Shown here piece after piece: positions 694-64,000 of a DNA stretch of 64,000 nucleotides. Numbering within the stretch: position 1 is the stretch's first letter; each line of letters starts with the position of its first letter. Below the pieces are notes generated by a model. The model was not told where the DNA came from. It ran no database searches and saw only the letters and a program-made list of their open reading frames with translations. The position numbers and the translations under genes were made by a program. This DNA comes from Squalus acanthias (taxonomy: Eukaryota), in NCBI GenBank assembly GCA_030390025.1, contig CM059432.1:28770001-28834000 (forward strand), written 5' to 3'.

Positions 694-808
694 GGTCAGT
701 CAATTCTACCAACTGTTCTTGCAGTGTGATGGAGGCATTGTACGTTCGGAACACTTTGGCAGTGAGCCCCTCCATCAACTCCTGAAGGTGCTTGTTCAGA
801 TCAGAGGT
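694..808 (-). CDS. TOP1MT: Topoisomerase IB core exon, 115 bp ([38 protein letters not shown]); gene continues left of the window
   Basis: TAG acceptor, GTAAGT donor; KVFRTYNAS catalytic Arg (R590 equivalent); LQEL and LQEQL are TOP1MT type. Confidence 0.98.
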
Positions 809-1005: not shown

Positions 1006-1074
1006 GTTCAATCTGTCAAACAGGTCATCTGCAGGATCCTTATTCTCCATGAATAATTTTAGATTCTTGAACAC
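1006..1074 (-). CDS. TOP1MT: Topoisomerase IB core exon, 69 bp (VFKNLKLFMENKDPADDLFDRLN)
   Basis: CAG acceptor, GTATG donor; NKDP..DLFDRL. Confidence 0.97.
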
Positions 1075-5114: not shown

Positions 5115-5300
5115 CTGTTTTTCCACTGGAACCTCGTTGTAGTATCTAATAGAGTCCTTTCCCAGGAAGTCAAATTCTACCACACACTGCAATCCACCAT
5201 GGCTTTCATGCAATTTAATATGCTCAACACGGAGTGAGCAGCAACCAACTGTATCGGCAGTCTCTCCTTCTTCCTTCTCATTCCCAGCTCTCAACGCTAG
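5115..5300 (-). CDS. TOP1MT: Topoisomerase IB core exon, 186 bp ([62 protein letters not shown])
   Basis: TAG acceptor, CAG|GTACAG donor; carries catalytic Arg (LALRAGN) and Lys (GKDSI), equivalent to human TOP1 R488/K532. Confidence 0.98.
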
Positions 5301-8419: not shown

Positions 8420-8720
8420 GTGTCGGGAGCGGAGAGAGCAGCAGCACAGTGAGTATTTAAACTCACTTTCGCGGGCTTTTTTTTGCAGAGGCCAGTGTCG
8501 GGAGCGGAGAGAGCAGCAGCACAGTGAGTATTTAAACTCACTTTCGCGGGCTTTTTTTTGCAGAGGCCAGTGTCGGGAGCGGAGAGAGCAGCAGCACAGT
8601 GAGTATTTAAACTCACTTTCGCGGGCTTTTTTTTTGCAGAGGCCAGTGTCGGGAGCGGAGAGAGCAGCAGCACAGTGAGTATTTAAACTCACTTTCGCGG
8701 GCTTTTTTTTGCAGAGGCCA
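8420..8720 (+). repeat. Four tandem 75-76 bp monomers at the LINE 5' end
   Basis: Units start at 8420, 8495, 8570, 8646 (partial at 8721); identical except T-run length. Confidence 0.97.
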
Positions 8721-9183
8721 GTGTCCGGAGTGACGAGACCGGAAGCGGACCAGGTGGGAAGCTCCCAGGTGAACAGCATTTAAGGAGGGTGGTGGCTTAA
8801 ACCCGAGTTCCTACAGAGTAGGAACCCCCACCCGCCCTCCTCCTCTAACCTACTAGTCTTTTAGCAGTCTAAAAACAGAGGTCACAAATTTTTTGGTCTC
8901 AGTTTCTTTTCAGCAGGGCAGGAACCGGGAGGAGCGGGAAGTCGGCGTAGGACCAAGGGGACACAAGACCGGGAAGTCAGCGAAAGACCAGGGAGGTAAG
9001 ACTAACTGGTAAGTACTTTCCTCAAACCTTCCTAGAAAGTAAAACTAAAACTAGTGGGATTTGGTTAGTTTAAAAAGGAATAAGAGGAGTACAGTATACA
9101 TTGGTCTAAGTAAGCTTCGGGAAAACAAAAGTCAATAAATAAACTAAAACTAGAAAATTAAAAAGTAATATAAGGGTTAAGTC

Positions 9184-17707: not shown

Positions 17708-17851
17708 TTTGTCAATGAAATACAGTGCCACTGCTCGTTGTCGTGATTTCATTTCCCTCGATTTCCAGTCTACACGATACTGAGTTCGGATTGCATCAAT
17801 CTTCTCCTTCAGGCGCCGGGCTACTTCATACTTCTGCCAGTCCTTTTCACC
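17708..17851 (-). CDS. TOP1MT: Topoisomerase IB core exon, 144 bp ([48 protein letters not shown])
   Basis: CAG acceptor, GTACAA donor; [12 protein letters not shown] motif; WKSREMK is TOP1MT type. Confidence 0.98.
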
Positions 17852-28368: not shown

Positions 28369-28513
28369 CTTAAGTTTGGAACTCGGGTTGAGCATGATGT
28401 ATTTAATGAGTCCCTGGACATTTTCTGTCCATGATGCCAGCCAGGTTACTTTATTATCGAAACGCACCTCCTTCCACTCGTGATTTTCTGGGGGAACTGG
28501 GATCTGGGAATCC
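28369..28513 (-). CDS. TOP1MT: Topoisomerase IB core exon, 145 bp ([48 protein letters not shown])
   Basis: TTCAG acceptor, AAG|GTATG donor; ends SKLK (TOP1MT type) rather than SRIK (TOP1 type). Confidence 0.98.
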
Positions 28514-29627: not shown

Positions 29628-29815
29628 TTGCTGCAGTTGATAATAACATCTTCAGGCAAGATCCTTTTCTTTAGCTTTCCCATCTTTGGATGGTTGCCTC
29701 GCCCACGAAACAGCCCCGGTGGCTCAATTTTGAAGTTGGCGATTCTCTCCCGATGCCCATCCATTACACAGTAGCCATACTCCTCGGTGATTGCATCTTG
29801 CTCTAACTTTAGTTT
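29628..29815 (-). CDS. TOP1MT: Topoisomerase IB core exon, 188 bp ([62 protein letters not shown])
   Basis: CAG acceptor, GTAAGT donor; invariant [19 protein letters not shown] motif. Confidence 0.98.
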
Positions 29816-34981: not shown

Positions 34982-35104
34982 CTGCTTCTCCTCCTTGGGC
35001 AACGTTTTCTTGGCCTCTGCTTTTTCAGTGAAGTAGCGATGCAGGTTGCTGAAATCGCATTTATTTAGGTTGGTGATCATCATCCTCTCATACTCGTTCA
35101 TTTC
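34982..35104 (-). CDS. TOP1MT: Topoisomerase IB core exon, 123 bp (EMNEYERMMITNLNKCDFSNLHRYFTEKAEAKKTLPKEEKQ)
   Basis: CAG acceptor, CAG|GTGAG donor; KCDF..HRYF and EEKQ resemble TOP1MT. Confidence 0.96.
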
Positions 35105-42712: not shown

Positions 42713-42834
42713 CTTCCGCCAGTCGTTAAAGAAGTTTTGTCTGAAGACGTCTTTTGTAGTGTAATCATGATCCAGCATCTTGGCGAAGAAGGTGGCCACT
42801 TCTTCTGCTGCGAGACTCAACTTCATTTGATTTC
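42713..42834 (-). CDS. TOP1MT: Topoisomerase IB core exon, 122 bp ([40 protein letters not shown])
   Basis: TAG acceptor, AAG|GTGTG donor; AAEEVATF and NFFNDWRK are TOP1MT-type residues. Confidence 0.97.
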
Positions 42835-43797: not shown

Positions 43798-44676
43798 TAA
43801 TAGAGTAGACATGGCTTTACTCGGCCTCAGGATATTTCTGATTAGGGATTTAAACATGGGAAGGGGACCAATACCTGCCGCTGAGGATCACTCCGTGCAG
43901 GCTTCTCCCCCCCCCTTCCTTTCCTGAAAGCACTGACCTATATAAAAGCGTATGATTCCATTGGCGTTTCCAACCTCCACATCAGGCAACACACTAACAA
44001 CTGAGCTACTGGTGTGAGCCTGAACCAACAGTTTAAAGCATTACATTTAGAAACAACAGAGAACCAAGACATACCTGTAAATGAACAGCTATATTTGTAA
44101 CATTTAGGAATAAAAGAAATTTGATAGTATACCATCCCCTTTTACATCTTACAGGAGAGGAAGGTTCACTTTCTTCCCATTTATATATTTATTGTAAAAC
44201 TGACATATTCAATACAAACAGGTGAATAATGGAATAGAACATATAAATTACATATATCACATCACAATAATGTATTTTTGTAACCACGAGCAAAGCAACA
44301 GGAGATCAGGTAGTTTATTGTATATCCCATGATTGGGCCATTTCATAGCATGCAATCACAACTATTATGTTGCTCAAAAATTATTTGAAGTGTAATCCTT
44401 GTAATCTGAAGTTACTCTTTACTGTGCATCTTACCAGCTCCCTACTTTAAAAAAAAAAATTGCCAAGTTTTTGAGGGGATGTAATTCATTAAGGGGCTTC
44501 ACAATACTTGAGAAAAGCATCCCCTATTAGTCACTAACATTTTAATCTGCTATACTAGGTATCCTTGTTGCCTCGTTGAGTAATGCTAGACATGATAAAA
44601 AATAAATTGAATCTCCTGTTGATAATTTACCCAGACCATTGATGCATTAAAAAAATGGCTGCCCACTGTAACTCAC

Positions 44677-44792
44677 CATTGTAACAGAAATCAACGTCAA
44701 AAGGAAGTGGCTCATATTTGGGTGCAAACAATGGACCTTTGTGTTCCAGAAACATCCATTTTACGCCATCCTCATAGTGTTCCTCTTCCCAC
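44677..44792 (-). CDS. TOP1MT: Topoisomerase IB core exon, 116 bp (WEEEHYEDGVKWMFLEHKGPLFAPKYEPLPFDVDFCYN)
   Basis: CAG acceptor, G|GTGAGT donor; LEHKGP.FAP.YEPLP TOP1 motif. Confidence 0.97.
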
Positions 44793-46071
44793 CTGATGAT
44801 GGAACCAATACATCCCACAGGGAAGAAGAGAGTTAGAAGAGACCAATACTAAATATTTTGCAATGACATATTTAAGCAATAGAAAAGACTACCTACCTGC
44901 TAGTGTCTAAGTTCATTCTTTAAATCAATGGTATGCTCCACACAGTACTGAGGCAAGGCCACATTTCAGTAATTTTTTCCCCAGAAAGTCACAGGGGATA
45001 ATACCCTTATGCTTACAAAGCTATGATGGGATGACATCAGAATGAATCCTATTTGATCCTTATAAAATGTTGGACCACATGTACACCCCTTCCCCCAGCC
45101 ACATGGAGGCTTCACTTCATCCTGACCCAAAAATCCCAAGAGTAAAAGGATAAGACCCAATGAATGTATTACCAGTAAAGCGGAGGGAATAGGAGGCCTG
45201 CGTGTGTAGAGGCCTTAGGTCAGCTCAACTAAGTGACCTGCCAACATTTGGAGCAGGTCCCGGAACCATAACCGTACAAAGTTGAGTACCTTCAGGAGAC
45301 AAAGGGGGAAAAACCTAGATGGGGAAATGAACCTAGTCATCGAGAGGCATCCTCAGCAGGCATTTGTAAATCCCTAAACAAGCAAGATCGGGTTGGTCAA
45401 AGACAGTTGATTGTACTCATCCATAACAATGAGCAAAACAATTTTGCAAGATTAGAATTTTAGATCACATTAACCAACAGGGTTAAAGGGAGAACAATTT
45501 AACAAAGAACCTGAATGGGAATGAAGATTTCTAGACCCCTTACATTAATTGAAAAAAGCAAAGGATATCTCAAAAAGAAATATGGAAGATTGATAGCTTC
45601 TTGTGGATAGAGCTTCACCCACAGGTGCCAAGAGAACTCTAATGTTGACCTTACACGAGCGAGGGTTATACCACCAGGAGGACCAATTAACGTATTTCTT
45701 TCTCTTCTCAGAAGAGAACAAAGTCTACACTACTGGAGATGAAAATCCTTGGCCTCGTCAATGTCCGTTTATCTCCATTTGTTGGAACAATGGAGATCTG
45801 TGGTTATGCAAATCACTGACAAAGTAGGATCACCTCGGGGCAAATTCTTTCATAGTGGAGACCAGAAAAATGGCCCGCCATCATACAGGAGCACAACTTT
45901 AGTGTTCTATGAATTAGTCCTTGTCCTTCATATATTTGGATTTCAAGCTGATCTAGAGATTAAAAAAATAAACTTGCTCGGAACACTTGTAAACATCATA
46001 TCCTGTTTAGCTCAAGATCAGACTTCTTGTAGTTGTCAACCCCCTGGAATGTGGCAAAGACAGTTATCCAG

Positions 46072-47511
46072 TGGATTCCGCCCACTAAGGGGCACAATGG
46101 ACATGATCTTCACCGCACGTCAATTACAAGAGAAATGCAGGGAACAGCACCAACCGCTGTACATGGCCTTCTTTGATCTCACAAAGGCCTTCAACACTGT
46201 CAACCGTGAGGGATTATGAAGTGTCCTCCTCAAATTCGGCTGCCCTCAAAAGTTTATCACCATCCTCCGCCTGCTTCACAACGACATGCAAGCCGTGAGC
46301 CTGACCAACGGTTCCACCACAGACCCAATTCACGTATGAACCGGGGTCAAGCAAGGCTGTGCCATCGCACCAACGCTCTTCTCGATCTTCCTTGCTGCAA
46401 TGCTCCATCTCACCCTGCGTAAGCTCCCCGCTGGAGTGGAGCTAATTTACAGAACAAACGGGAAACTATCCAACCTCCGTCGCCTCCAGTCCAGATCCAA
46501 GGTCGTCCCATCACAGTATGCAGATGACGCTTGCGTCTGTGCTCACTCGGAGGTCGAACTCCAAACCATCGTCAACACCTTCACTGAAGCGTACGAGAGC
46601 ATGGGCCTTGCACTAAACATCCGTAAGACAAAGGTCCTCTACCAACCTGCCCCCGCCACATAGTACTGCCCCCCAATTATCAAAATCCACGACAAGGCCT
46701 TGGACAACGTGGACCACTTTCCATACCTCAGGAGCCTACTGTCAACAAGGGCAGACGTCGATGACTAAGTCCAACACCGCCTTCAGTGTGCCAGTGCAGC
46801 CTTCTGTTGCCTGAGGAAGAGAGTGTTTGAAGATCAGGACCTCAAACCCGGCACTAAGCTCATGGTCTACAGAGCAACAGTGATACCTGCCCTGCTGTAT
46901 GCCTCAGAGACATGGACCATGTACAGCAGGCACCTCAAAGCACTGGAGGGGTACCACCAACACTGCCTCCGCAAGATCCTGCAAATCCACTGGCAGGATA
47001 GGTGCACCAACGTCCGTGTTCTCGCTCAGGCCAACATCGAAGCTTTGACCACGCTCGATCAGCTTCGATGGACGGGTCACATTGTCCGCATGCCCGATAC
47101 GAGACTCCCAAAACAAGCGCTCTACTCGGAGCTCTGGCACGGCAAGAGAGCCCCAGGTGGGCAGAGGAAACGCTTCAAGGACACCCTCAAAGCCTCCTTG
47201 AAAAAGTGCAACATCCCCACCGACACCTGGGAATCCCTGGCCCAAGACCACACAAAGTGGAGGAGAAGCATCCGGGAAGGCGCCAAACACCAAGTCTCTT
47301 CACCGGGAGCAAGCGGAAGCCAAGAGCAGGCAGCACAAGGAGCGCATGTCAACCCAAGCACCCCACCCACCCGCCCCTTCAACCACAGTCTGCCCCACCT
47401 GTGACAGAGACTGTAGGTCCCGCATTGGACTCATCAGTCACCTGCGAACTCATTTTTAATGTGGAAGCAAGTCATCCTCGGTTCCGAGGGACTGCCTAAG
47501 AAGAAGAAGAA
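46072..47511 (+). mobile_element. RTE-clade LINE, 5'-truncated, degenerate
   Basis: GFRPLRGTMDMIFTARQLQEKCRE, DLTKAF, YADD, RW.GHIVRMPDTRLPKQ; (AAG)n tail; perfect 26-bp TSD at 46046-46071 and 47512-47537. Confidence 0.95.
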
Positions 47512-47954
47512 GGAATGTGGCAAAGACAGTTATCCAGGCTATCCCTGATGGGCAGCTCTAATGAGTGGTCTATAAATTGATAAATATGCAAATGCCGCAG
47601 CCTTAGGGAACACCCAGGGGTTAAATAAAATATATTTATGGCTGCTACTGTGGAAACTCAACAGTAAGAGTTTTTGAAAAGGTTGGATAGCAATGTTAAA
47701 GCAGGCATTTTGTATATTTTCTGGACAAAACCTAAGCGATTTGAGGTAACACCACCATATTTTTTGACAAACTTGTTCAGTGATCAGGTGAAAGATGTCC
47801 ATCTTTTGGGTACCAAAAACCATGACAAAAAACTTTTCTGGGGAAAGAAATTGTTTAATTGCAAGGGACCATCTATCTTGGTTGCCACCAGCTTGGGAAT
47901 ACCCCAAGAAGCTACAGAAATGTGAAAGATCTGATTGTAGGGTTTACACTTTGA

Positions 47955-48530
47955 TAGGAACATAGGAACAGGAGTAGGCCATTCAGCCCCTCGAGCCTGT
48001 TCCGCCATTCAATGAGATCATGGCTGATCTGCGACCTAATTCCATATACCCGCCTTTGGCCCATATTCCTTAATACCTTTGCTTAACAAAAAGCTATCAA
48101 TCTCAGATTTAAAATTAACAATTGATCGAGCATCAATTGCCGTTTGCGGAAGAGCGTTCCAAACTTCTACCACCCTTTGTGTGTAGAAGTGTTTCCTAAT
48201 TTCACTCCTGAAAGGTCTGGCTCTAATTTTTAGACTATGCCCCCAGTACTAGAATCACCAAGCAGCGGAAATAGTTTCTTTCTATCTACCCTATCTGTTC
48301 CCCTTAATATCTTGAAAGCTTCGATCAGATCACCCCTTAACCTTCTAAATTCTAGGGAATACAACCCTAATTTGGTGTAATCTCTCCTCGTAACTTAACC
48401 CTTGGAGTCCGGGTACCATTCTGGTAAACCTACGCTGCACTCCCTCCAAGGCTAATATATCCTTCCTAAGGTGTGGTGCCCAGAACTGCTCACAATACTC
48501 CAGGTGTGGTCTAACCAGGGTTTTGTATAG
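47955..48530 (-). mobile_element. CR1 3' fragment
   Basis: LVRPHLEYCEQFWAPHL; (TTCCTATG)-type tail. Confidence 0.88.
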
Positions 48531-51500
48531 TTTTTGTATAGATTGTCTTCTGACTTGATCTTTGAAATCAATCTGCACTATATTTGCTGTGAAGCAAAGT
48601 AGATAGCTTCACATTTACACAAGATGACAGATGACTACTGAACTTTAAAAAAAAATAATGCTGGGCGTTTTTCTGCTGGCTACCTTAGATTGGACCTAGA
48701 TCAAAGCAGTTTGCTCTAGGATCTTGGCTAAAAAACACAAAGGCTGCTGTTTCTGCCTCGTTCTGTAGGCTGATTTAGAGATCCTGCTAATAGTACTTGC
48801 AAACTTCAAACATTTCCATCAGTTTTCAATGAAAAAGCCCCCTCATTGAAGGGCATCTGCAGCAGCTTTGTCTGCAACTTAGAGATGCATGGCCATACAA
48901 GTCATTCATCAAGATTTCTGTGTTAAGCTGCTACATCTACAAAGCTGCAGTTGTGAGATGGTCTGGAGGAGGTCCTCCAGCAGCTACAGGAATGGCTCAC
49001 TGGCAGGGCTTTGAATGTCAATTATTACAACCTGGAGCAGAGCTACTTGCTTATAAAAGATGAGCAATGAATCTAAAACCAGGTTATCTTGAATAGGGCA
49101 GACTCCTTAGTGAAGACTTTTTGACCCCACAAATTATGTCCCAGCTGAAGATCTTGTCACAAAGAAATAGAATCTGGTACACTTCTCTAGTTTGGTGGCA
49201 GGAATTATGTATATACAGGCTAATTAGTACACTCAATTTAAGTCTATGTGCCGCTTCCACACATCTATCCAGACCCTCTTGCGCATAGATGAGTTAAAAC
49301 CTGTAAAGATCAAAGAAGTTGACCATTAAGAGATCTGCAGCAAATGGCTCTAATCCCAGGGTAAGGACAGGCTGCCTGAATGAGGCCCTTAGTATTTGAG
49401 GAATCGCCAGGCCTCTTGGCTCTCTGGTGCCAAGACGAAACTCTTCCTTCCACAGGATCTCAGGACTGTCTTGATGCCAAGGTGAACTCCATCACTGCTG
49501 ACTGACGTGGCAGACAGAATGAGAAAATGGAATTGCCATTGCAAATCATTAGTACTGATCAGATCAAAGAGTGTACAAAGACTTTGTTGCAGCTGGTATT
49601 AAGCTGGCTCTTTGGGCAATTAGCCTGCGGCATAACTGAATTAGAATTGTGCATAACCAAAGTTTTGATGGGACAGAGGGGGGCCCAGCACCTTCTCCTT
49701 ACCAATTTTACTTCCGTGTTTAACACGTTTTTCACAGTCTTAGCAAAAAAAGACACACTTTATAAGCAGCCATGTCATGTGTACCACAGAATGCAGAATC
49801 ACAAGAGTCTCTGACCATAAAAGCTCAGGTGTAAGTCAATGTTTGTTGCCTCCATACACTGAAACATTTAAAAAAAAAAGGAATTCATCACGTGGCAACA
49901 GAACCAGACCATACCAACAATCAAAAATATTGCTAGGGATGGAGTGAGGTCAAAATGTTTTTCAAAGGTGAGATAACATGATTTAAAACCATGGGTTCAT
50001 TTTTTGCAGAGGTATGGGAAAGATCATGCACTGTTAAATGTTATGACATCACAAGCACCAAGCAGAAGGGAAATGGTCTGTCCAGGGGTAGGGAGTATTA
50101 CTTTTTAGTCGAAGCACTGAAGAAAGTAGCAAGATTGATTTGAGTTTCAATTTTAATCCCTAGCATGAAAGCCCTTAGGTAGGCCAAGTGTCACCAATTA
50201 CGGAGAGCATTCCAGTGGCTCCACTGCAAGAGCAGAAGAAACAACATCACCAGCCTGATGGCCACCCCAGAGACACCCAATCCCCCAGGAAACGGTGTCA
50301 ATAGACTGGAAAGTCAACATCACTAGCTTGCAGTCTGGTCTGGAGTTAGGTGGCCCGAGAAAAAGTTTCAGGTCATTTGAATTTATATCGTTTGTAAGAG
50401 ACAAGCAGGTACAAAGATCATCACTGGAGCTGCACAACAGAGATGCAGATTGTACTCAAGGATCTCCATATCATCAGCAAGAAATTTGGCATTTTTTTAA
50501 AATAAAAATTACAATCCATATATTACTTTATTTTATAAAATTGGTTAGTACCATGAACAAAAATCATCTCTCACCTTTAACAAAGCATAGTACCTTGACT
50601 TTACAGAGCAGAGTAAAGAACAGTACAGAGGTATGGCTTCTGCCATCCCCAGAAGTACTTGAGGATGAAGAATTAAAATCATAAACTGTTTCGATTTACC
50701 ATAATTGTTTTGAGTTAAAGATTAGACCACAAACTCACCATCATAGACATTATTCTTCATCTACTGGAAAGGCAGCTTTTGAAGCCTATATAGGCAATAT
50801 ATTGGGGCGCCGAAAACGGATATGAACTGCTCTCAAGGTAGTCTACATCATCTCTGGGAGAAACTCCACAGCTACCAAGAGGTGCAGCACAAAATTAACA
50901 TGCAGCAACAGCACAAAGCTATGTTTAACAGACATTGTACATTAAATTTCATTGCCTGTGAAGCACTTAGAGATGTTCCTTGGAGCTGCGATAAGGCACT
51001 ATAGAAATAAAAGTTTCCTTTAAAGCCATTTATAAGGAGCTACATGAGGTCATTAAATTGGAGGGAACCTTTCCTAATGGTATCATCATGAATACCTACT
51101 GGTTTTCATTATCTTGTGCTTACACTATTTTCTGATGTGGACTCACACAAGCAATCCCTTCCCACACCCTCAAAAGCTCAAACCTAAAGTGCCGGTGTGG
51201 GTCATATACAATCTTCAGTGAATAGTGAGTCAGCAGTTTGTAGGATGCATTGATGTCATCGTCATTCAAGCTGCCATTCGTCTTCTCATTACCCCCCAAC
51301 GTGGCTACACTCAAAGTGGCGGACCTGGTGACGCAAGGAAACGGAGCTCCATAATTCAGCTTTTAAAATTTTTGGCAAAAAAAATCTACCAATTGCTATA
51401 ATTTAAAAAAGGAAAATAAAGTTCCACTTTATCTAGCAATCATAATGTAAAAGAACAGATCAGATGATTAAAAGGATTAGTGATGCTGCTCTGCAGTTTA

Positions 51501-52234
51501 ACAACAGGCATAAATGTAATGCCACAGTACGTAGTGTTGCAGTTTGATTCCATATAGCAAGAAATGTGCCATATGAGTGGTGTTAATATTTGTCTTTGAG
51601 GCAATTATTAGTGGAGTCAGAGACAAATCACTTTCATGTCAGTTTTGGCAGGAGACCATCTGTTCCTCTATTCTATCAGTGAATTATCTACTCTGCAAAC
51701 TAGTGTTTTGGAGTAAGAACGTCAATTAGGGGAGCTTTGTTCTAGGTCCCTATTCTCATTAAGACCAAAGTTGAAACTGCTCCAATTCATTTCAATCAGG
51801 CCCCTTAGAGCCAGCAGTTCCTGGTATCTTTAGTCTGTGGCAGATTCAAACTCAGGTCAAGCGATGAAAAGACAGTATGCTGCTTCACTGGACCGCCCAG
51901 GATTAGATTGGAGATATTAAGTTAAACCCATCGCCCACAGTACACACGACCCAAAAGCACTCAATACATTGGGAGTTTCAACCTGCTGCGACACAAGACA
52001 CTTTGGGGGTTTACCATCCTCTGGTTACAGACTGTTTAACAACTTTGCATAAAATTCCTTTTTGTGCTATTTAACAGGTCAATAACTACAAGTTAAAAAG
52101 AAATCACAAACACATTAAACCAGGCCACTACAGGAAATTAAAGCTCTCTGGAAGCAGTAGCTGCTACACCAAGACACTTAAAACAGACAGCAGCGGTGAC
52201 AATTTATCGTCTCGTCATGGAGCGAATCATTATA

Positions 52235-52650
52235 TAGAATCATATAGAACAAAATGCGTCCATTCGGCCCATCATACCTGTGCCGGCTCTTTGGAAGAGC
52301 TATCCAATTAGTCCCACTCCCCTGCCCTTTACTCGTAGCCCTGCATTTTTTTCCTTTTCAAGTATGTATCCAATTCTCTTTTGAAAGTTACTACTGAATC
52401 TACTTTTACCATCCTTTCAGGCAGTGCAGTCCAGAACATTTCTCGCTGTGTAAAAAATTTCTCATCTCCCCCCTGGTTCTTTTGCCAATTATCTTAAACC
52501 TGTGTCCTCTGGTTACTGACTCTCCTCCTGCCAGTGGAAACAGTTTCTCATTATCTACTCCAGCAAAACTCCTCATAATTTTGAACACTTCAATTAAATC
52601 GTCTTAACCTTCCCTGCTTGAAGGAGAACAATCCCAGCTTCTCTTGTCTC
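52235..52650 (-). mobile_element. CR1 3' fragment
   Basis: FKIMR...EKLFPLAG...RGHRFK. Confidence 0.82.
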
Positions 52651-53174
52651 TACATAAATTTAATTAATTAAATATCTCTATTTACTAACCTGGGAGTATA
52701 CCTTTAATCACTAGGCCCTATACTACTATGACCAAAATATTGTTCAGTGCGCTAGAGAATCAAACTTGATAGCAGTCTAATTACTGGTCTGGTGAAAGCT
52801 GGGACCCTGCGGTTTCATCGGGCTCCACAGTGCCACTGGAGGGTTGCAATTGTCTTCACTATTTTCAGCAGCTTTTGATGAAAAGTTCTCAGTTCTTTAA
52901 AGACCTCACTTTCAATATGGGCAAGCTGAAAACGGTGCAACCAAGCATCTCTTCCACCCACTCCATCATTTCCCCATTTTCCAGTCAATTAAATCTCACA
53001 CACAAGACATATAGTGAGGCTATCACATCGCCTCAGGAGTGAAAGGACAGAGGGTTTCAGGGGTTAACCAGCATAAAATAAATTAAAAATGCTTTGAAGA
53101 CAGTATTACCAGATAACCTTTTTGTTTCTCGAGAACAATCCCACCTGACTACAGAATTGAAAGTTGTAACCTAC

Positions 53175-53305
53175 CTTTTTCCTGCAAAATGTGCTTTCTG
53201 AAGAACAGAAACTGTGCATCTTAAAGTCCTCAAAGATAAATAAGTGTGCTTAATGTTGAAGTTAGCAAAGGCTAGTTTTGTTACAGCAGCCACACATCTG
53301 AACAT
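53175..53305 (-). CDS. TOP1MT: Candidate alternative first coding exon encoding a mitochondrial targeting presequence (MFRCVAAVTKLAFANFNIKHTYLSLRTLRCTVSVLQKAHFAGK+R)
   Basis: ATG at 53305-53303; 131 nt open (43 codons + 2 nt); donor AAG|GTAGGT; phase 2 fits the 44792 acceptor (AG+G = Arg, then WEEE). No Asp/Glu; rich in R/K/L/A/S/T. Confidence 0.75.
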
Positions 53306-53638
53306 AACAAAACACTGTCGTTGCAGAGATCCCCAGAGGTTAGCTTACTTCAAAACACACTGCACTGAAAAAGAAAACCCCCACACATAAAACACTCGCT
53401 TCACTCATTACTGCTACATTTTGAACTTTCAACCTGGAAACAGTTCCTGTGGTCCTGCTAATTTTTTCCCCTACAGACAACACATTTCTGCACATGGTAA
53501 CTGATCCTACAGACTAGCACAAGCCTCGCTTTCAGTTCCTAGTGAATGAGTGTTTTTTTTGTGCGTGTGTGAGTGAACAGGGAGGAGAGAGAAAACAGGG
53601 TGATGAAGAAAAAGGAATAAACAGCCTCACTTATTGTT

Positions 53639-53674
53639 CATGATGCGGAGATGCCGGTGTTGGACTGGGGTGGA
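53639..53674 (-). mobile_element. 36-bp Penelope-like terminal micro-insertion
   Basis: atgatgcggagatgccggtgttggactggggtgga, identical to the 3262 copy end; 11-bp TSD cacttattgtt (53628-53638, 53675-53685). Confidence 0.75.
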
Positions 53675-53920
53675 CACTTATTGTTGACAGTTTCAAAGTG
53701 AAAAACAAATACTTTTCAACTCAATAGCAATTAGATTTATTTTAGAATTTTTGTTCCTTTACAAACTCTCAGGCAGTTTCTAGACCCTGTCATAAATGCG
53801 GTGTCAATTTGAAAGTAATGCAAGGCAATTTTATTTAACCAATTTTCTTTCTGTAGATCTTACACATATTGAAAGAATCTTATAAATCTCTCAAAAAATA
53901 AAGTGGAACAGGGTCTCAAA

Positions 53921-54340
53921 TGTCAGCCTTGGCTCAGTAGTAGCACTCCCACGAGTCAGAAGGTTGCGAGTTCAAGCCCCATTCCAGAGACTTAAGCACA
54001 CAATCTAGGCTGACACCCGAGTGCAGTACTGAGGGAGTGCTGCACTGTCGGAGGTGTCGTCTTTCATGAGGCGTTAAACCTCTCAGGTGGACATAAACAA
54101 TCCCATGGCACTATTCGAAGAGCAGGGAAGTTCTCCCAGTGTCCTGGACAATATTTATCCCTCAACCAACACCTAAAACAGATAATCTGATCATTTATTT
54201 CATTATTGTTTGTGGGACCTTGTGCGCAAATTGGCTGCCGCGTTTCCTACATTACAACAGTAACTACACTTCAAAAGTACTTAATTGGCTATAAAGTGCT
54301 TTGGAACATCCTGAGGTCATGAAAGGCAAGTCTTTCTTTC
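53921..54340 (+). mobile_element. Full-length tRNA-derived SINE with central domain and L2-like tail (DeuSINE-like)
   Basis: A box TGGCTCAGTAG, B box GAGTTCAAGCC; 3' ...taattggctataaagtgctttgg...gaaaggcaagtctttc; other copies in the window. Confidence 0.85.
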
Positions 54341-54725
54341 ATGCAGGAACCTCTTTTAATGTAAAGAAACCACAAATTTAACAGGGAAGGAGAGTCTAAT
54401 GGCCAATTTTGGTGGGGGTGGGGTGTAAAAAGAGAGGCTGGTGATTTTATATTGTTACTCTCTCTTCCCCCTCTTTTCCACCTCTTGCATTTTAAATTGC
54501 GAAAACAGGCTTATTAAAAATCTAATGCATTAAAATACCCCTCTCAACCCATAGCAAGGTGGGTATATCTCTGCTCCCAATCCCACTTATTTTTGAGGCA
54601 CTGCACAGAGGTTGTACAAGAAGAGAAATAATGAATGCATCAAAAGGTAACATAAAATTAAAAAAAAATTGAAGATGGTACTATTGCACAATAACTCTTC
54701 CCCATCCCAAACCAATTAATCTCAC

Positions 54726-54895
54726 CATTTCCATTTATCTGCATCTTTTTTCTTCTCTTCCTCCCCTTTCAATTGGGTCTTGCTTTTATCACGCTTCAAT
54801 TTCTGCTTTGACCCCTTCTTCTCTTTGACCTCGATCTTCACGCTCTTCTTTACCTTCTCTGATTCCCTTCTTGATGCCTTGCTTGCAGATGATGT
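54726..54895 (-). CDS. TOP1MT: Topoisomerase IB gene, Lys-rich N-terminal exon (170 bp; TSSASKASRRESEKVKKSVKIEVKEKKGSKQKLKRDKSKTQLKGEEEKKKDADKWKW)
   Basis: AACAG acceptor, TG|GTGAG donor, open frame. Joined to the 44792 exon it gives KWKWWEEE, the TOP1 N-terminal/core junction motif. Confidence 0.9.
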
Positions 54896-55585
54896 CTGTT
54901 TTGAAATTAAAAATAAAAACTTTTTTTTTTTTAAAAATGAGCATTTTTCATGGTATTCAGGAGCACAGTAAGAGAGGACAAAACAAAAAGGTTACTGCTG
55001 TCCATTTTAGTGAAGTTTCTTTTTCCCTCTTTCAGGAAGAAGTACCGAGAACAAATACTGCAGCGTATATTTCCTGGTTACTAAGAAAGGAACATATCTT
55101 TATTGTGGCAAACTGATCTTATTCAGCCAAGCTACTAAGTTCAAACCATCCCTGAAAGCCACTGAGCACAAGGTAATTCATTCAATCTTCTCTCTCATTT
55201 CTGTAGTGCTTTACTTACTTCGTTATTCATTCATTTTGAAATAACATTCGGGTGAACTTTATCTTGGGGTCCGGGGGGGGGGGGGGGAATGACAGCACTG
55301 GTAGGGAATACTACACTACTTTTGGTGCCCAGAATGCACAAACATTCCCAAGCACAGAATAGCCAGTTGCAAAAAGTAATTTGACAATAAATCCTCAGCC
55401 TCATCTCCACAGCCTCACACTACCTCATCAGCATTTATCCCTGCAAGCACCCTCCACTTATCAACACCACCTACTCCTCATCTCCCACTCCATCAGCAGC
55501 AGCTGCACCTTCAAACAATATACCCCCACCCTCTGAACTCCCTCACCCAGCACCTCCATCTTCACCTCCCACCCTACATTCAGAT

Positions 55586-56250
55586 ATAGTAGTGTAGTGC
55601 TCATGTTACTGGACCAGTAATCCAGAGGCCTGGACTAATAATCCAGACAATGTGAGTACAAATACTACCATTTGAGAATTTGAATTCAGTTTTAAAATAT
55701 CTGGAAATGAAATGCTGGTATCAGAAAAAGTGACCTTGAAGCTGATGAATTGTCGTAAGAACCTGCTGGTTTACTAATATCTTTCCAAAGGACATTACAC
55801 CGTCCTTACCTGGTCTGGCCTATATATGACTCCAATCCCATACCAATGTGGTTGACGTTTAACTGCCCTCAAAAGGTGACCTAGTAAGCCACTCCATTGT
55901 ATCTCGCCACCACCAGCGCAACAATGTACCCCACCTAGAAGATGCACTGCAGCAACTCGCCAAGGCTTCTTCGACAGCATCTCCTAAACCCGCAACCACC
56001 AGCACCTAGAATGACAAAAGCAACAGGCACATGGAAACACCACCACCTCCAAGTCCCCCTCCAAGTCACACACCGTCCTGACTTGGAACTATATCACTTT
56101 TCCTTCATAGGCACTGGGTCAAAATCCTGGAACTCCCTACCTAACAGCACTGTGGGAGTACCTTCACCACACAGACTGCAGCGGTTCACCACCACCTTCT
56201 CAAGGGCAATAAATGCTGGCCTTTCCAGCAATGCTCACATCAAGAATGAT
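55586..56250 (+). mobile_element. Internally deleted (SINE-sized) derivative of the tRNA-headed LINE
   Basis: Same head and central domain as 38061-38350, joined to the same 3' end as about 40850-41190. Confidence 0.8.
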
Positions 56251-56850
56251 TTTTTTTTAAAAACTCACAGGGGAGGTGCTGAGCAGAATCAGATGTTTCC
56301 CTCCATCTAAGAAGGAAGGGAGTGTCTGGATGGATCCTGGGAGATCAAAGCTAACTTATACCCATGTGTAACTTTCTCAAGATCCAGCTGAGTACCTTTT
56401 CAACCAGGCCCATTTTACCAGCAGAACTGTCAAGAGTGCAATATTGCAATTTTGAGGGAAAGCTTCAGGTGTCTCATCAGTCTGGGGATGTTCTATACTT
56501 TCACCTGGCTAAGATCTCAAGTAGGGTATGTTCAATAGCTTTGCCTTAAGGAAAGACCTCCTCTCAGAGGCCTTTGACGAGGAAGACAATCAAACGCATT
56601 GATGGATTAGCCAGATAAGCAGTAGCTGCCTAGAGGATGTGAAGTTTCTGGCTGCAAAATATTTGAGCCCATATATCAGGTCCTTCTCTTGATTGTTACC
56701 TCTGTCCACTGCACGAGTAAGCTGTTCAATCTTCCCTTTTCCACCATAATTATTTCATAAAGATAGACACTTCTCTGCATGCATCAAGTCACTTGGATCC
56801 CATTAATGCTACCTCATCAAAGCCACTTCCAAATATTGACAATAAACCAT

Positions 56851-57533
56851 GGGGGAAAAATTCAGTTGCTTTGCGCCTTGTTAGCACCCTAAGAGGGCGC
56901 TAACGGGGCACAACGCAACTAGCGCCCGGGCGCGGCGCTGCCAATGCCTCCTGTGAAATTCAGTGGGAGGTTAGCAGTAGCGGTAACAGTTAGCGCCCCG
57001 TGGCGCTGTGCCGCCGGCGATGACTTCATCGCCGTGCGCAACACCCCGGCCGCGATCTCCGGTAGTGCCCCCTGACTTACCGTCGGACGCTATGTCCGAT
57101 GGGGTCAGGGTGCCTACCTGCAGCCGGGGCGGCGCTAGTTAAAGGGGAGGTGGCGGGCGCCTGCCAGCACCTGCCCCCATTGCTGCCCCCCCCCCCCCCC
57201 ACAGGGTGCCGGCTGCTCTCCGTGAGCCCGGCACTCCGAGTGCCGGGCTCGTTTGCCGGCACTCCCGATGCCTTGTGGCCCAGCTGGGCGCCGGGACGCG
57301 CTGCGCCAGGCCCCTCCCCTTTAATAAGGGGAGGAAGGCCTGCAGTACCGCGGCGTGACGTGCCGCAGCGCCACGATATTGCCTCAGTGTCCCAAGAGGG
57401 ACGCGGGGCGCTTCCAGTAGCGCCCCTCCTCCCTCTCGGGGCGCTACCTGGGAAAATTGGCCACGGGGGCGCTAATTTTTTTTGGGGTGGTAAAAGTAGC
57501 GCCCTGATGTTAGCGCGACTCAATTTTTCCCCC
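56851..57533. mobile_element. GC/CpG-rich MITE, PIF/Harbinger-like
   Basis: TIR gggggaaaaatt(c/g)agt; 3-bp TSD cat (56848-56850, 57534-57536); repeated tagcgcc/ggcgcta subterminal motifs. Confidence 0.8.
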
Positions 57534-59399
57534 CATGTCTGCAAAATATTTTTCCCCCCATGTCTGCAAAATATTAATCAAAACCCAGACTGTAAATGTG
57601 CCTACCGTTTCTTTTCAATGTGTTGCCTTTTAGTACCAGTATAGGATGTATAATCTCTCATACTATGATTCATGCTTCTCCGGGTGCTACACAAGTGGAC
57701 GAGGTCTTATATGGCTTATGGCATGGAGGTGACCCTCTCATCGGTCAGCCAAGTCCCGCGATGGACCTATTGCTTCTGTTGTATGCGCAAGGGCAGTTGG
57801 GTCCTGCTTCCTTTCTGCCACATGTGTAGGCATCTCAGGGGTATGATGGGAAGGCATCCATCAGTTGCTACCCTGAGAGACTGCACCATCATGTAAATAC
57901 ATTCTTGCCATCCCACTAGTACTCGGCTCTGGATATGCTCGGCCACTGATTGGGAAAGGAGACATAATGGTACCGATCAGATCGGTAAAGTCCTCAGAGA
58001 GGGTGGTCTACAATCTGTCAAAGCCAAAGGAGGTAGCCCTCTCCAATATGGCACCCAGGGCCTCTGTGGGAACCTAAAGAGTGCATGTTCGTAGGTTAGC
58101 AGAATGAAAGGATCAGGTTCAGCTGAACCTGATCCTGTCCTCACTTGACACTCACACAAGTATACCGTCAAGCAGGGGGCTGACCTGCTCCAAAGCTTAT
58201 CGAAGTCAGCTGATAAGATGTGCACGAACACAAACCTGGCTGACTCTCCCGCAGATTTCCCCAACCTGCCCTTCATTTAGTATTCCTCCACCCCAATCCA
58301 TTAATTCTTCGCCACAGAGCCACTGCTGTTATTGAAAACTCAGCATGTGGAAGACCTGTGTCCCACCACTTTGCAGCATTGTCAACCCAGTGAGTCAAGG
58401 TTGGCTCCTTCCCTGTCTCTCCTGAATGTTTACAGATGAAGCATCACTGGAGAATGCAATCAACAATGGAGACAACAATGATCCAGGGATACAACATGCT
58501 TAATTTTGATGGCATTCCATCAGTGCGGTACCTGAGACTCCAACATTAATTCGGACATGGTGTTCCAACTGACAGGAACAGGAAAAAGAAACGAGAATCC
58601 TGTAGATCTTCTACTTCCCACACAAAAATTCTCATTACTATTTTAACATCCTTGTTCAATCTACTCCAATCCCACTGTTCAGGTTCAGCGTCCTTCTCCA
58701 ATTGCTTGCTGTGCCATTTTAAAGAACAGGCCCTCAGGTCTCATTTGAGAATCAAAAAATGAAAACAAAAAAAAGATTGTAAAGGGTTTGCAAATTAGTA
58801 CAAGCAAATCAGTAGTTTAAAAAAAAAATCCACACATACTTGTGTGGTAAAAAAAAAATCAATGAGAAGTTTTTAAAAAAAGGTTATACATATACTCCTG
58901 CAGGTATGACTACATCACAATAAAATAGCAACATCACAAAGTGCCTAAAACTTAACAGTTTTAGCTCATACTGATTTTACATTTACAAAAGTTGTGAATG
59001 TTTTTAATGGACTGAGACTATGATAGTCAGCTAAAAGTGGGCTAATAGCTCCACTCAAGAAGTGACCTTATCACTTGTGACTGATCGGCTAGCTTCAATT
59101 GTGGTGTTCTTCACTGTGTCATAGCCCTTCGTCCTGTAATATTCAGTATAACTAATGAATTCAGGATACCTACTACATTTCAGAACAGTCAGTTAGAACA
59201 TTGTGCTCTTTAGGAGCTACCCAGAATGTGACCAAACATCTCTTCTATCCTGCATGACAGAGTTTAGCCCAGCTTCAGACAGTTTTTTAGGTTTATGTAC
59301 CAAAACACACAAAACTGCCCTATAATTCAGCAACTCACTTAAAATATCCCATAACAATAGAAACGGTGGAAATGGGAAGGTCACCATAAAGGCCATTTA

Positions 59400-60272
59400 G
59401 AGTCATAGAATAATACAGCACAGAAGGAGGCCATTCACCCCATCATGCCTGTGCTGGTTTGAACGAACTATCCAATTAGTCTCACCCTCTTGCTCTTTCC
59501 CCATAGCCCTGCAGATTTTTTACTTTTAAAGTATATATCCAATTTCCTTTTGAAAGTTACGAATGAATCTGCTTCCACCACCCTTTCAGGCAGTGCATTC
59601 CAGATCATCATAACTTGTTGCATAAAAATGTTTTCTGGTCAACTCTCCTCCGGTTCTTTTGTCAATTATCTTAAATCGGTGTCCTCTGCTTACCGACCCT
59701 CCTGCCAGTGGAAACAGTTTCTCCTTTTTTACTCTATCAATACCCTTCATAATTTTGAATACATCTATTAAATCTCCCTTTAACGTTCTCTGCGCCAAGG
59801 AGAACAATCCCAGCTTCTCCACATAACTGAAGTTGCTTAGCCCTGATACCATTCTAGTAAATCTCCTCTGCACCCTCTACAAGGCCTTGACATTCTAAAG
59901 TGTGGTGCCCAGAATTAGACAAAACACTCCAGCGGAGGACGAACCAGAGATTTATAAAAGTTTAGCATAATTTCCTTGCTTTTGTACCCTATGTCTCTAT
60001 TTATAAAGCCAAGGATCCTCTAATTTTTTTTTATTTTTTTTTAAAACAGCTTTCCCAACTTGTCCTGCCACCTTCAAAGATTTGTGTATGCAAACCCCCA
60101 GGTCTCTGTTCCTGCATCTCCTTTAAAATTGTATCATTTGGTTTATATTGCCTCTCCTCATTCTTCTTCTCAAAATGAATCACTTCACACTCTGCTGTAT
60201 TAAAATTTCACCTGCCAGTTGCCTGCCCATGTCTGTCTATGGCCTCCTGAATTCTGCTACTATCCTCCTCAC
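59400..60272 (-). mobile_element. CR1 3' fragment
   Basis: QRRFTRMVSGL...GDLIDVFKIMKG. Confidence 0.87.
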
Positions 60273-60834
60273 TTGTCAGATGTGGGAAGGAATAGGATAG
60301 GTGACTAGTTCATGCACCTCAAGAGCCCTCCCTCTCCCAGTGTGATATATTAATTTCTTGCATCAGCCATCCTTGTGATGTCTGAGGGAACATACTATTT
60401 GGACAGTTTTGTATTTTGGATCGGAGTTGATTCATCCACAGACATTTTGCATAGGGTGCCCGTTTGGGGAAAGAGAGGGAGAGATCTCCATTTGTGTGGA
60501 TTAATCCTCAAGGTCCTAGAAAAGACAGTATATAACCATAAGCAGCAACTGCCCCAGATATGCTTAACCCTACATTTAAGACACTGTACTAAGTGCAGCT
60601 TCTTAAGAGTGCTACAGTGAAGAGTCTTCAATTTTAAAAGGTAATGCAAAAAATCAAGGCAATATTTTTTTTAATGATTAGCTAAAGGCAAACAATTTCC
60701 TAAGTTAGAAACATTCCGCCAAAAAGCAGAGAATCATTCTGAAGATTATTTTGTGTGCATGTTTCTCCCCAACAGTTCGAGTAGCTTTCTAATACCTGAC
60801 CTGTGACTTTTTGTCATGCGCTGACAATGGGTCA

Positions 60835-62425
60835 GACTGGATGGACCACTCAGCATCGATCTAGGCATTTGAACATGTAAAAGACACATCGAGCCCAGTT
60901 GACCCTGCAAAGTCCTCCTTATTAATATCTGGGGGCTTGAGTCAAAATTGGGAGATCTGTCCCATAGACTAGTCAAGCAACAGCCGGACATAGGCATGGT
61001 TCTGTGAGTATGACTATCAGCCAACGTCCGAGACTCCATCACCATCTTTGGGTATGTCCTGTCCCACCGGTAGGACAGACCCATTAGAGGTGATGGAAGG
61101 TGTCGTTGACAGTGCTATTAAGCAGCACTTACACCAATAACCTGCTCACCGATGCTCAGTTTGGGCTCCCCAGGTACACTCAGCTCCAGACCCCATTACA
61201 GTCTTGGTCCAAACATGGACAAAAGAGCTGAATTCCAGAGGTGAGGCGAGAGTGACTGCTCTTAATATCAAGGAGCCCTAGTAAAATTGAAGTCAATGGG
61301 AATCGGGGAAAAACGCTCCACTGGCTGGAGTCATACCTTACACAAAGGAAGATGGTTTTGGTTGTTGGAGGCCATCTTCAGTTGCTTCATCAATGACCTT
61401 CCCTCCAGCATAAGGTCAGGAGTGGGGATGTTCCCTGATGATTGCCCAGTGTTCAGTTCCATTTGCAATTCCTCAGATAATGAAGCAGTCTATGTCCGCA
61501 TGCAGCAAGACCTGGACAATATCCAGGCTTAAGCTAAGTGGCAAGTAACATTTGCACCACAGAAGTGCTAGGCAATGACCATCTCCAACAAGAGAGTCTA
61601 AACACCTCGCTTTGACATTCAATGGCATTAGATTTTTGGACTCTAGGGGAATCAAGGGATATGGAGATCGGGCGGGAAAGTGGAGTTGAGGTCGATGATC
61701 AGCCATGATCTTACTGAATCTCGGAGCAGGCCTACTCCTGCTCTTACTTCTTATTACCATCATCAGATCCCCCCACCATCAACAAGTGGGGGTTAGCATT
61801 GACCAGAAACTTAACTGATCAGCCACATAAATACTGTGGCTACAAGAGCAGGTCAGAGGCTACAGAGAGTGACTCAGCTCCCGAGTCCCCAAAGCATTTC
61901 CACTACTTACAAGGCGCAAGTCAGGAGTGGGATGGAATACTCTCCACTTGCCTGGATGAGTGCAGCTCCAACAACACTCAAGAAGCTCAACACCAGCCAG
62001 GACACAGCAGACCGCTTGATCGGCACCCCATCTACCATCTTAAACATTCACACCCTCCACCACCAACACAACATGGCTGCAGTGTGTACCATCTATAAGA
62101 TGCGCTGCAGCAACTCGCCAAGGCTTCTTCGACTGCACCTCCCAAACCCATGACCTTCACCACCTAGAAGGACAAGGGCAGCAGGCGCATGGGAACAACA
62201 CCACCTCCAAGTTACACACCATCCTGACTTGGAAATATATCACCTTCCTTTATCGTCGCTGGATCAAAATCCTGGAACTCCCTACATAACAGCATTGTGG
62301 GAGTACCTTCACCACACTGACTGCAGCAGTTCAGGAAGGTGGATCACCATCACCTTCTCAAGGGCAATTGGGTATGGGGAATAAATGCTGGCCTTGCCAG
62401 CGCCGCTCCCATCCCGTGAATGAAC
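60835..62425 (+). mobile_element. Deleted copy of the tRNA-headed LINE family (EN start, RT end, 3' tail), with a small CR1 3' piece at about 61628-61752
   Basis: Collinear with parts of 38390-41190; YKAQVRSGMEYSPLAW. Confidence 0.82.
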
Positions 62426-62529
62426 ACATGCATTTTTTTTTTAAAAAGGTCTTTATATTCAATCTTTGACAGACATTATATACTCGCATTTCCAGTATGC
62501 GTCGCAGATAGCATTCAGGAACCTGATGG

Positions 62530-63405
62530 AATATGAAACTCGGAAATGTAGTAAACAATGAGGAAGATAGTAACAGACTTCAGGAGGACACACTCAGACT
62601 TGTAAAATGGGCAGACACAGAGCAGATGAAATTTAAAGCAGAGAAGTGTGAAATTTTGGTAGGAAGAATGAGGACAGGCAATATGAACTAAATGGTATAA
62701 TTTTAAAGGGGTGCAGGAACAGAGAGACCTAGAGGTTCACATACACAAATCTTTGAAGGTGGCAGGACAAGTTGAGAAAGCTGTTAAGCATATGGGATCC
62801 TTGGCTTTATTAAGAGAGGGATAGCGTTCAAAAACAAGGAAGTTATGCTAAATCTTTATAAAACGCTGGTTAGTCCTCAGCAGGAGTATTGTGTTCAATT
62901 CTGTGCACCACACTTTAGGAATGATGTCAAGGCCTTGGAGAAGGTGCAGAAGACATTTACTAGAATGATACCAGGGATAAGGGACTTCAGTTATGTACAG
63001 AGACTGGAAAAGCTGAGGTTGTTCTCCTTAGAGCAAAGAAGGTTAAAAGGAGATTTGATAGGTGGTGTTCAAAATCATGAATGTTTTTGATAGAGTAAAT
63101 AAGGAAAAACGGTTGCCAGTGGCAGAAAGGTCAGTAACCAGGTAACTGTCAAAAGACCAGAGGCGACATGAGGACACAGCGAGTTGTTGTGATCTGGAAT
63201 GCACTTCCTGAAAGTGTGGTGGAAACCAATTCAATAGTAACATTCAAAAGAGAATTGGATGAACACTTGAAGGCAAAAAAATTCACAGGGCTATGGGGAA
63301 AGAACAGGGAAGTGGAATTAACTGGTAGCTCCACCAAAGAGCCAGCGCAGGCATGATGGGCTAAATGGCCGCCTTCTGTTCTACATCATTCTATGATTCT
63401 ATGAA
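62530..63405 (+). mobile_element. CR1 3' fragment
   Basis: LYKTLVSPQQEYCVQF, VVVIWNALPE, (ATTCTATG) tail. Confidence 0.87.
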
Positions 63406-63752
63406 TCGATTCCAATTCTTAATTGGAGGCCAATAAATAGGAACCCAAATGCAGCACTAGTTGGAATCAGTTAACGCAACACAGACCTAAAGCTTAGGTT
63501 ACACACCAAGTGGTACCATTGCCCACTAAACCCTGTATTACATAGGAATTATAGGACAAAAAAGACCAAAGTCCATCTAGTTTAGCTTCTACCATCCTGG
63601 TAGTCACAATAATAATGGAGCTGTTGACTAATCATGGCAGTTTGCCTCCTATCCATGTGGGTAGTGGAAATCAGACCAATGTAAAAAATTTAGTTTATTT
63701 TTCAAATTACAGCAGTGTGATCGCTAACAAATAGAAACCTATAAAAGCATAC

Positions 63753-63816
63753 CTGAGGTATTTCATCATCCTCAACAGCTTCCTCCACTTTCAGCTTCTT
63801 GGGTTTGGCCACTGAC
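63753..63816 (-). CDS. TOP1MT: Topoisomerase IB gene, upstream Lys/Glu-rich N-terminal exon (64 bp; SVAKPKKLKVEEAVEDDEIPQ); further exons lie beyond the right edge
   Basis: TTTTAG acceptor and CAG|GTATG donor; ends in phase 0, matching the start of the 54895 exon; charged KPKK-type composition like nuclear TOP1 N-termini. Confidence 0.75.
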
Positions 63817-63915
63817 CTAAAAATAAAGCAGAAGAGGTAAATGTTTTTTTTAAAAAAGCTAGTAATCAGAAAATTTAAGCCATACTGACCCATATTGAGG
63901 GAACATGTTTTGAAG

Positions 63916-64000
63916 TGTCAGCTTGCTCAGTTAGCAGCATTCTTGCCATCTGAATCAAAAGCTTGCAAGTTTCAACCCCATTCGAGGCTGACACTCTAGC
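63916..64000 (+). mobile_element. Start of another Deu-type SINE (tRNA head), truncated by the window edge
   Basis: tgtcagcttgctcagttagcagcattct...gtttcaacccca...ggctgacact. Confidence 0.6.

Follow-up and report, generated by a model that had tools for sequence, protein, structure and literature searches.

The 64-kb window analysed here, a stretch of contig CM059432.1 of Squalus acanthias, corresponds to the interior of a single minus-strand TOP1MT-type gene that extends past both window ends and whose introns are rich in copies of long and short interspersed nuclear elements (LINEs and SINEs). Stop-to-stop reading frames, local inspection and tblastn searches with five relatives placed nine exons of a type IB topoisomerase core between positions 44792 and 694, with AG/GT ends throughout. 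Upstream of this core lie two exons, A and B, encoding part of a charged N-terminal domain, and a presequence-like exon with its own ATG (53305-53175), located between exon B and the core, that had been overlooked in the original prediction. We consider it quite probable that the shark TOP1MT locus is a two-isoform gene whose long form is nuclear. The exons, in the direction of the gene, are as follows.

63753 to 63816, minus strand: exon A, charged N-terminal domain of the long isoform (64 nucleotides, phase 2 in and phase 0 out; AG/GT ends and frame)
54726 to 54895, minus strand: exon B, charged N-terminal domain (170 nucleotides, phase 0 in and phase 2 out; AG/GT ends, frame and contigs)
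53175 to 53305, minus strand: alternative first coding exon, presequence-like (131 nucleotides, ATG at 53305, phase 2 donor)
51184 to 51324, minus strand: candidate optional in-frame cassette exon (141 nucleotides, phase 2 at both ends; AG/GT ends and translation)
44677 to 44792, minus strand: core exon 1, with an acceptor common to both 5′ ends (116 nucleotides; PF02919)
42713 to 42834, minus strand: core exon 2 (122 nucleotides; tblastn, splice ends and frame)
34982 to 35104, minus strand: core exon 3 (123 nucleotides; tblastn, splice ends and frame)
29628 to 29815, minus strand: core exon 4 (188 nucleotides; PF02919)
28369 to 28513, minus strand: core exon 5 (145 nucleotides; tblastn, splice ends and frame)
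17708 to 17851, minus strand: core exon 6 (144 nucleotides; tblastn, splice ends and frame)
5115 to 5300, minus strand: core exon 7 (186 nucleotides; PF01028)
1006 to 1074, minus strand: core exon 8 (69 nucleotides; tblastn, splice ends and frame)
694 to 808, minus strand: core exon 9 (115 nucleotides; the catalytic His and Tyr belong to the remainder of the gene, which lies past position 1)

Joined together, the charged exons and the nine core exons yielded 480 codons free of stops, with AG/GT ends and matching phases, and the peptides quoted in the original prediction are readable in these frames; its claim that exons with charged peptides are in frame with the core was thus confirmed. Both 5′ ends of the gene carry phase 2 donors that fit core exon 1, and both have open frames. 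Exon A is contiguous with exon B in the sawshark and other shark models, and a further candidate exon at about 58600-58800 was dropped because of this contiguity and because tblastn gave no match to it. The cassette, which follows both alternative 5′ ends and precedes the core, is a candidate exon in Squalus acanthias; sawshark and sevengill have models with the same insert, whichever 5′ end they use. Core exon 1 begins at the residue equivalent to W206 of human TOP1. Window exons matched both PF02919 and PF01028 with scores above the curated cut-offs, and the equivalents of the catalytic residues R488, K532 and R590 are all present in the window core, as are those of F361, G363, R364, E418, G503 and D533. 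The exons for the equivalents of catalytic H632 and Y723 fall beyond position 1; the sawshark relative has a C-terminal PF14370 domain. The proteins closest to the window core were all from sharks, the sawshark model being 93.5% identical over 402 residues. Pfam returned no match in exon B or the presequence-like exon, and Rfam none anywhere in the window.

Splicing was investigated in sequencing runs. When runs were searched with the sequence of exon B plus flanks, 21 were listed, eight of which, from two studies, contained 0.39-0.42 of the query words, in agreement with the share contributed by the exon only (140 of 331 words); the 13 other runs, with small shares, were not used. Contigs of four of the eight runs (from two studies), presumed to be RNA and bearing no RNA label on record, were mapped to positions 44600-63900. 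Most joints and loose ends in the mapped contigs stemmed from SINE and LINE copies and were disregarded. In all four runs the presequence-like exon was joined to core exon 1, the joint having intron-type ends and a short side of 27 letters, and in all four a mismatch-free contig lay on exactly 54723-54895, the position of exon B. The exon B contigs carried 585, 124, 862 or 162 upstream letters that do not continue along genomic DNA, and 26 letters beyond the exon on the core side. Counting letters that fit both sides, the presequence and exon B contigs each overlapped core exon 1 by 30 letters; since the contigs were made from 31-letter words, this common overlap is what would be expected of two paths forking into one contig, and we infer that exon B is spliced to core exon 1. 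All four runs differed from the window at 44723, within core exon 1, and at two or three sites just upstream of the alternative ATG (53319-53322), pointing to another individual or a close species. At the cassette exon (51184-51324), low-depth contigs from two of the four runs began about 30 letters inside the exon and continued into the upstream intron.

Exons A and B together encode a peptide of 77 residues, 26 of them basic and 16 acidic (55% charged), and the C-terminal tryptophans of exon B are the equivalents of W203 and W205 of human TOP1. This stretch was 68% identical to the sawshark model over its full length (E 3e-26), a match beyond chance, and of the 12 proteins compared it aligned (E < 0.02) with all eight chondrichthyan long models; no alignment was obtained with shark TOP1, human TOP1 or the turtle and frog long models (best E 0.89). 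Conservation of the charged exons among five sharks amounted to 48-68% identity. Searched singly by tblastn, exon A gave weak matches (E 0.02-0.08) and exon B clear ones (E 3e-9 to 5e-7). The long form measures some 870-960 residues in sharks and its N-domain about 310-360 residues in chondrichthyan relatives, from which it follows that additional exons should exist past position 64000 and that the window holds only part of the domain. The N-domain is alignable within chondrichthyans and also within amniotes (turtle with Tasmanian devil, E 1e-7; devil with donkey, E 1e-10), the latter result being indicative of conserved sequence rather than a prediction artefact. TOP1 N-domains can be aligned from shark to human, and the window N-domain aligns with none of them. 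The NLS-like character that the original prediction had ascribed to the domain was borne out to the extent that each of the eight chondrichthyan long N-domains harbors four to six generic basic patterns of the nuclear localization signal (NLS) type; in sequence this rich in lysine, such patterns are weak evidence of a signal. Within the otherwise low-complexity domain, sharks, rays and a chimaera share a conserved block (residues ~109-169 of P0004; outside the window in the shark) that is 67% identical over 61 residues between sawshark and chimaera, and amniotes have another conserved block close to the N-terminus. These blocks are possible binding motifs.

The alternative first exon encodes a 43-residue peptide with seven basic and no acidic residues, 88% identical to the N-terminus of a 604-residue sawshark isoform and 47-77% identical to those of six other chondrichthyan short isoforms (tblastn E 2e-13 to 4e-12 for the exon). 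Contigs carry the 5′ part of this exon on to 53337-53437. The exon meets the core at the residue matching W206 of human TOP1, that is, at the TOP1 205/206 junction, which is also the junction used in bony-vertebrate short forms. According to published descriptions, the first eight exons of human TOP1 encode residues 1-205 (PMC2770673), and human TOP1MT, with 14 exons and 601 residues, has its last 13 exons in common with TOP1 (PMC10081982); on the basis of these structures, the shark presequence exon occupies the place of the human TOP1MT targeting exon. As a presequence-like first exon is still there and is spliced to the core, the locus has not turned into a nuclear gene. One protein that groups with hoverfly TOP1 (P0361) displays a short basic N-terminus at the vertebrate presequence junction, suggestive either of an alternative mitochondrial exon predating the vertebrate duplication or of intron read-through; as a single record that may be read-through, it was not used as evidence for a pre-vertebrate origin.

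The identity of the paralog was assessed with a tree of 40 rows, hand-picked from about 500 proteins, which included lamprey and five invertebrate-type outgroups and no human or rodent TOP1MT row. The window fell in a 20-row TOP1MT clade (support 98/97) taking in gar-side and teleost fish, amphibians, reptiles, a bird, platypus, devil and donkey, and outside the clade of their own formed by 13 TOP1 rows (99/96), five of which are chondrichthyan. This tree supersedes an earlier quick one, with plant and nematode outgroups only, in which TOP1MT was unresolved. The TOP1 of sharks is a separate gene whose product, 767-772 residues long, shares 74-76% identity with the window core; a clade uniting chondrichthyan TOP1 with the window gene was rejected (p 0.0037). 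The original prediction that the core is of TOP1MT type is supported by this best tree, one alternative placement (below) not being rejected, and the shark gene is, going by its sequence, likely orthologous to TOP1MT. A 771-residue Mustelus protein (P0148), which grouped with TOP1 in the earlier tree, bears the source name 'DNA topoisomerase I, mitochondrial', a misnaming which indicates that shark names for these paralogs are unreliable. A third type IB gene, outside the TOP1 and TOP1MT clades and beside lamprey (86/70), appears to be present in frogs, where it is represented by X. laevis top1.2.S and by P0347, a tungara frog protein of 757 residues; frog top1.2 is reported as nuclear in embryos, and the literature consulted speaks of two vertebrate paralogs.

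Long models with a charged N-domain and tryptophan pair were found in sharks, rays, chimaera, knifefish, salamanders, frogs, turtles, crocodilians, lizards, snakes and birds, and in mammals in platypus (1121 residues), echidna (1081), marsupials (1134-1143) and Equus (972-1033), the last being the only placental among the long matches listed. In eight taxa, long and short models are annotated for one gene per species or genus, namely sawshark (915/604), sevengill (914/604), chimaera (870/604), skate (916/615), knifefish (872/598), axolotl (1230/614), Xenopus tropicalis (1124/602) and horse (~1000/587). In a survey of the N-termini of 345 proteins, whose records are not independent of one another, 196 were closest to TOP1MT: 94 long charged (defined as a charged N-domain of at least 150 residues that terminates in the tryptophan pair), 12 partial charged, 33 short basic, 41 with other N-termini, including two plant proteins binned by best match, and 16 without a core start. 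A short basic N-terminus was seen in one of 148 TOP1-like proteins. Long forms are already in public automatic annotation, under labels such as 'mitochondrial isoform X1'. With long charged models distributed from chondrichthyans to horses, the domain is neither specific to this species nor absent from mammals, and the original prediction erred in holding that mammalian TOP1MT is devoid of it: only the human-type form of 601 residues, the one described, lacks the domain. Its proposal of a second nuclear topoisomerase I derived from the TOP1MT locus fared better, a nuclear long form being the best reading and sharks having a separate TOP1 gene; what fell away was its restriction to the species. 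One RefSeq record of horse TOP1MT (P0499, NP_001420475.1, 607 residues) has its start within the last charged exon instead of the presequence-like one.

Where the long form may reside was addressed with published proteomics of relatives. In X. laevis oocytes the nuclear fraction of 'top1mt-like.L' was 0.71, compared to 0.08 for top1.1.L and 0.11 for top1.2.S, and from 13 h after fertilisation it was 0.75-1.0; the relative abundance of this protein was highest in the oocyte (2.38, versus 0.65 in the egg), and the filtration used parts nuclei from mitochondria (PMC9537182). A 132-kDa Xenopus contig whose best human match is TOP1MT was detected by mass spectrometry without a localisation value (PMC4764573), and Top1mt was present in a Xenopus oocyte RNA-granule pull-down (PMC8861640) that we did not use as evidence. 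In chicken, TOP1MT was recovered as a separate protein group on cross-linked chromatin, dropping to ~-0.5 log2 through prophase in step with TOP1; the two shared the same hierarchical clusters and differed in k-means cluster, and, unlike the falling TOP1MT, the mitochondria-enriched cluster was among those accumulating (PMC8823707). By analogy with these relatives, the shark long form most likely enters the nucleus.

We infer that the gene is a two-promoter, two-product locus with separate promoters. An internal promoter, in the intron before core exon 1, would give rise to a short form (~604 residues in relatives) made of the presequence-like exon and the core, which by its resemblance to human TOP1MT would be imported into mitochondria. 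An upstream promoter would yield the long form, composed of a low-complexity lysine/glutamate-rich N-domain and the same core, with no presequence, and this product, with basic clusters and a restored tryptophan cluster beside the core as in nuclear TOP1, would act as a second type IB enzyme that relaxes chromosomal DNA. Its occurrence in cartilaginous fish, a teleost, tetrapods and some mammals would make this arrangement old, with the human-type gene as a reduced state. In the order of events that we envisage, after the early vertebrate duplication (PMC10081982) one copy would have kept solely the nuclear form and the other both forms, until the long form was lost in the human lineage.

Several observations weigh against a nuclear long form expressed from a TOP1MT ortholog. 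That the runs are RNA is a guess, and the joint of the presequence exon with the core has just those 27 letters on its short side; the joints of exon B with the core and of exon A with exon B are not among the 15 joint rows listed of 77. The hydrophobic moment of the presequence-like peptide is unremarkable, 1214 of 2000 shuffles reaching it. The N-terminus survey drew on length-filtered searches with limited listings, and most of its long forms are automatic gene models. Proteomics tables do not separate isoforms, paralogs have peptides in common, and 'top1mt-like.L' was equated with the X. laevis long model by name. The shark N-domain aligns with neither tetrapod long N-domains nor TOP1 N-domains, so that homology with the tetrapod ones rests on position and on the terminal tryptophans. 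The core, finally, is mixed, in line with the original prediction that some of its positions are TOP1-like: among 26 diagnostic columns, 13 carry the TOP1MT residue in the window, eight the TOP1 residue and five neither; six of the 13 TOP1MT-type columns are also the commonest outgroup state, and at columns 260, 349, 351 and 409 the window has the TOP1 residue against bony-vertebrate TOP1MT and most outgroups.

These last four residues, together with the unalignable shark and tetrapod N-domains, would also be accounted for if the two-isoform gene were real and the chondrichthyan gene a third paralog, closer to TOP1, that dates from the early genome duplications and has a presequence exon of its own. 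Frogs, with top1.2, do possess a third type IB gene, and in the approximately unbiased (AU) test a chondrichthyan clade placed with TOP1, lamprey and frog top1.2 was not rejected (p 0.207). We nonetheless regard this origin as unlikely: the best tree gives the 98/97 TOP1MT clade, the presequence-like exon sits at the bony-vertebrate short-form junction, the chimaera member is named 'DNA topoisomerase I, mitochondrial' by its source, and the matches listed contain no other chondrichthyan TOP1MT candidate. Improbable as well is a purely mitochondrial TOP1MT gene whose upstream exons are transcribed and spliced and whose long product is minor, non-nuclear or functionless in the shark. In its favor, the 12 PMC12092007 supplement files searched, of 15, contained no top1mt entry, and human Top1mt, when directed to the nucleus, binds mitotic chromosomes poorly, its core being poor at chromosome binding (PMC2770673). 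Against a minor or idle product, the exons are open and conserved among the five sharks, a block of the N-domain is shared between shark and chimaera, and a TOP1MT-named product is found in the nucleus or on chromatin in frog and chicken (PMC9537182, PMC8823707). That we are dealing with nuclear TOP1 itself, or with a duplicate of TOP1 confined to sharks, the charged exons then being ordinary, as the charged N-domain ending in a TOP1-type tryptophan pair and the name 'DNA topoisomerase 1-like' given by some sources to short shark isoforms might suggest, is scarcely credible in view of the separate and just 74-76% identical shark TOP1, the rejected clade and an N-domain that does not align with TOP1's.

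Three other features of the introns may be recorded. The intron between exons A and B contains a G+C-rich and CpG-rich stretch (56840-57575) with a 25-nucleotide duplication at its end; as it lies under many contigs, a repeat element is more probable here than a promoter. An inverted pair of LINE 3′ fragments (59398-60186 and 62643-63401) shows 77-92% complementarity in blocks, and an intronic tandem array occupies 8419-8730 (75-nucleotide unit, 4.1 copies, 98% matches).

To return to the two-isoform gene, Xenopus oocytes reportedly contain a 165-kDa topoisomerase I, a large, oocyte-enriched type I enzyme described in papers of 1989-1996 whose mRNA is said to have remained unidentified. The X. 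laevis long TOP1MT model has 1110 residues and a mass of 128 kDa, its N-domain being 46% charged; as this mass falls below 165 kDa, slow gel migration must be assumed for the two to match. Our widest proposal, for which we see about as much reason to believe as to doubt, is that most jawed vertebrates, including frog, chicken and some mammals, have a second, oocyte-enriched nuclear type IB topoisomerase from the TOP1MT locus, that this is the unidentified Xenopus enzyme, that the mitochondria-only human TOP1MT is a late reduction, and that the textbook account, in which one nuclear and one mitochondrial paralog separated at the origin of vertebrates, is wrong. No report of a long or nuclear TOP1MT isoform was found in the literature searched, most subscription journals being outside its scope, and a nuclear isoform of this locus, widely conserved, has apparently been overlooked. 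TOP1MT serves in the cited papers as the standard example of a paralog turned mitochondria-only; if the proposal is true, the mitochondrial form arose by addition of an alternative exon, and loss of the nuclear form came late, in some lineages only. The gene for the large Xenopus oocyte topoisomerase I would become directly testable, and a second nuclear target may be involved in results obtained with camptothecin, TOP1 depletion or TOP1MT knockout in Xenopus extracts, in DT40 cells of chicken and in fish. W205 of human TOP1 affects camptothecin inhibition of negative-supercoil relaxation (PMC2094083), and such a target may matter because the long form regains the equivalent of this residue. 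Natural enzymes in which a single core serves both genomes would, in addition, put to the test the claimed mutual incompatibility of the two cores (PMC2770673).

Compared to known systems, the shark locus resembles human TOP1MT in that its core falls, in the best tree, within the vertebrate TOP1MT clade and that a short basic first exon is joined to it at the TOP1 205/206 junction, and differs from it in also having upstream charged exons from which a long form without presequence would be made. TOP1MT has been presented as mitochondrial only, with a short N-terminus (PMC10081982, PMC2770673, PMC9638942, PMC12718117); restriction to such a short N-terminus is shared neither by the shark locus, with its charged upstream exons, nor by many annotated vertebrate TOP1MT genes. 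With vertebrate nuclear TOP1, the shark long form has in common a charged low-complexity N-domain, basic clusters, a tryptophan pair beside the core and the equivalents of R488, K532 and R590; unlike TOP1, it comes from a separate gene, and N-domains of the window type are histidine-poor and 310-360 residues long, against ~207 residues in shark TOP1. UNG1 and UNG2 are a nuclear and mitochondrial pair generated from alternative first exons. TOP3A likewise combines one catalytic core with two N-termini and two compartments (PMC9638942, PMC12718117); in contrast to TOP3A, which uses alternative start codons on one mRNA, the shark locus would choose between exons, and would do so beside a dedicated nuclear paralog.

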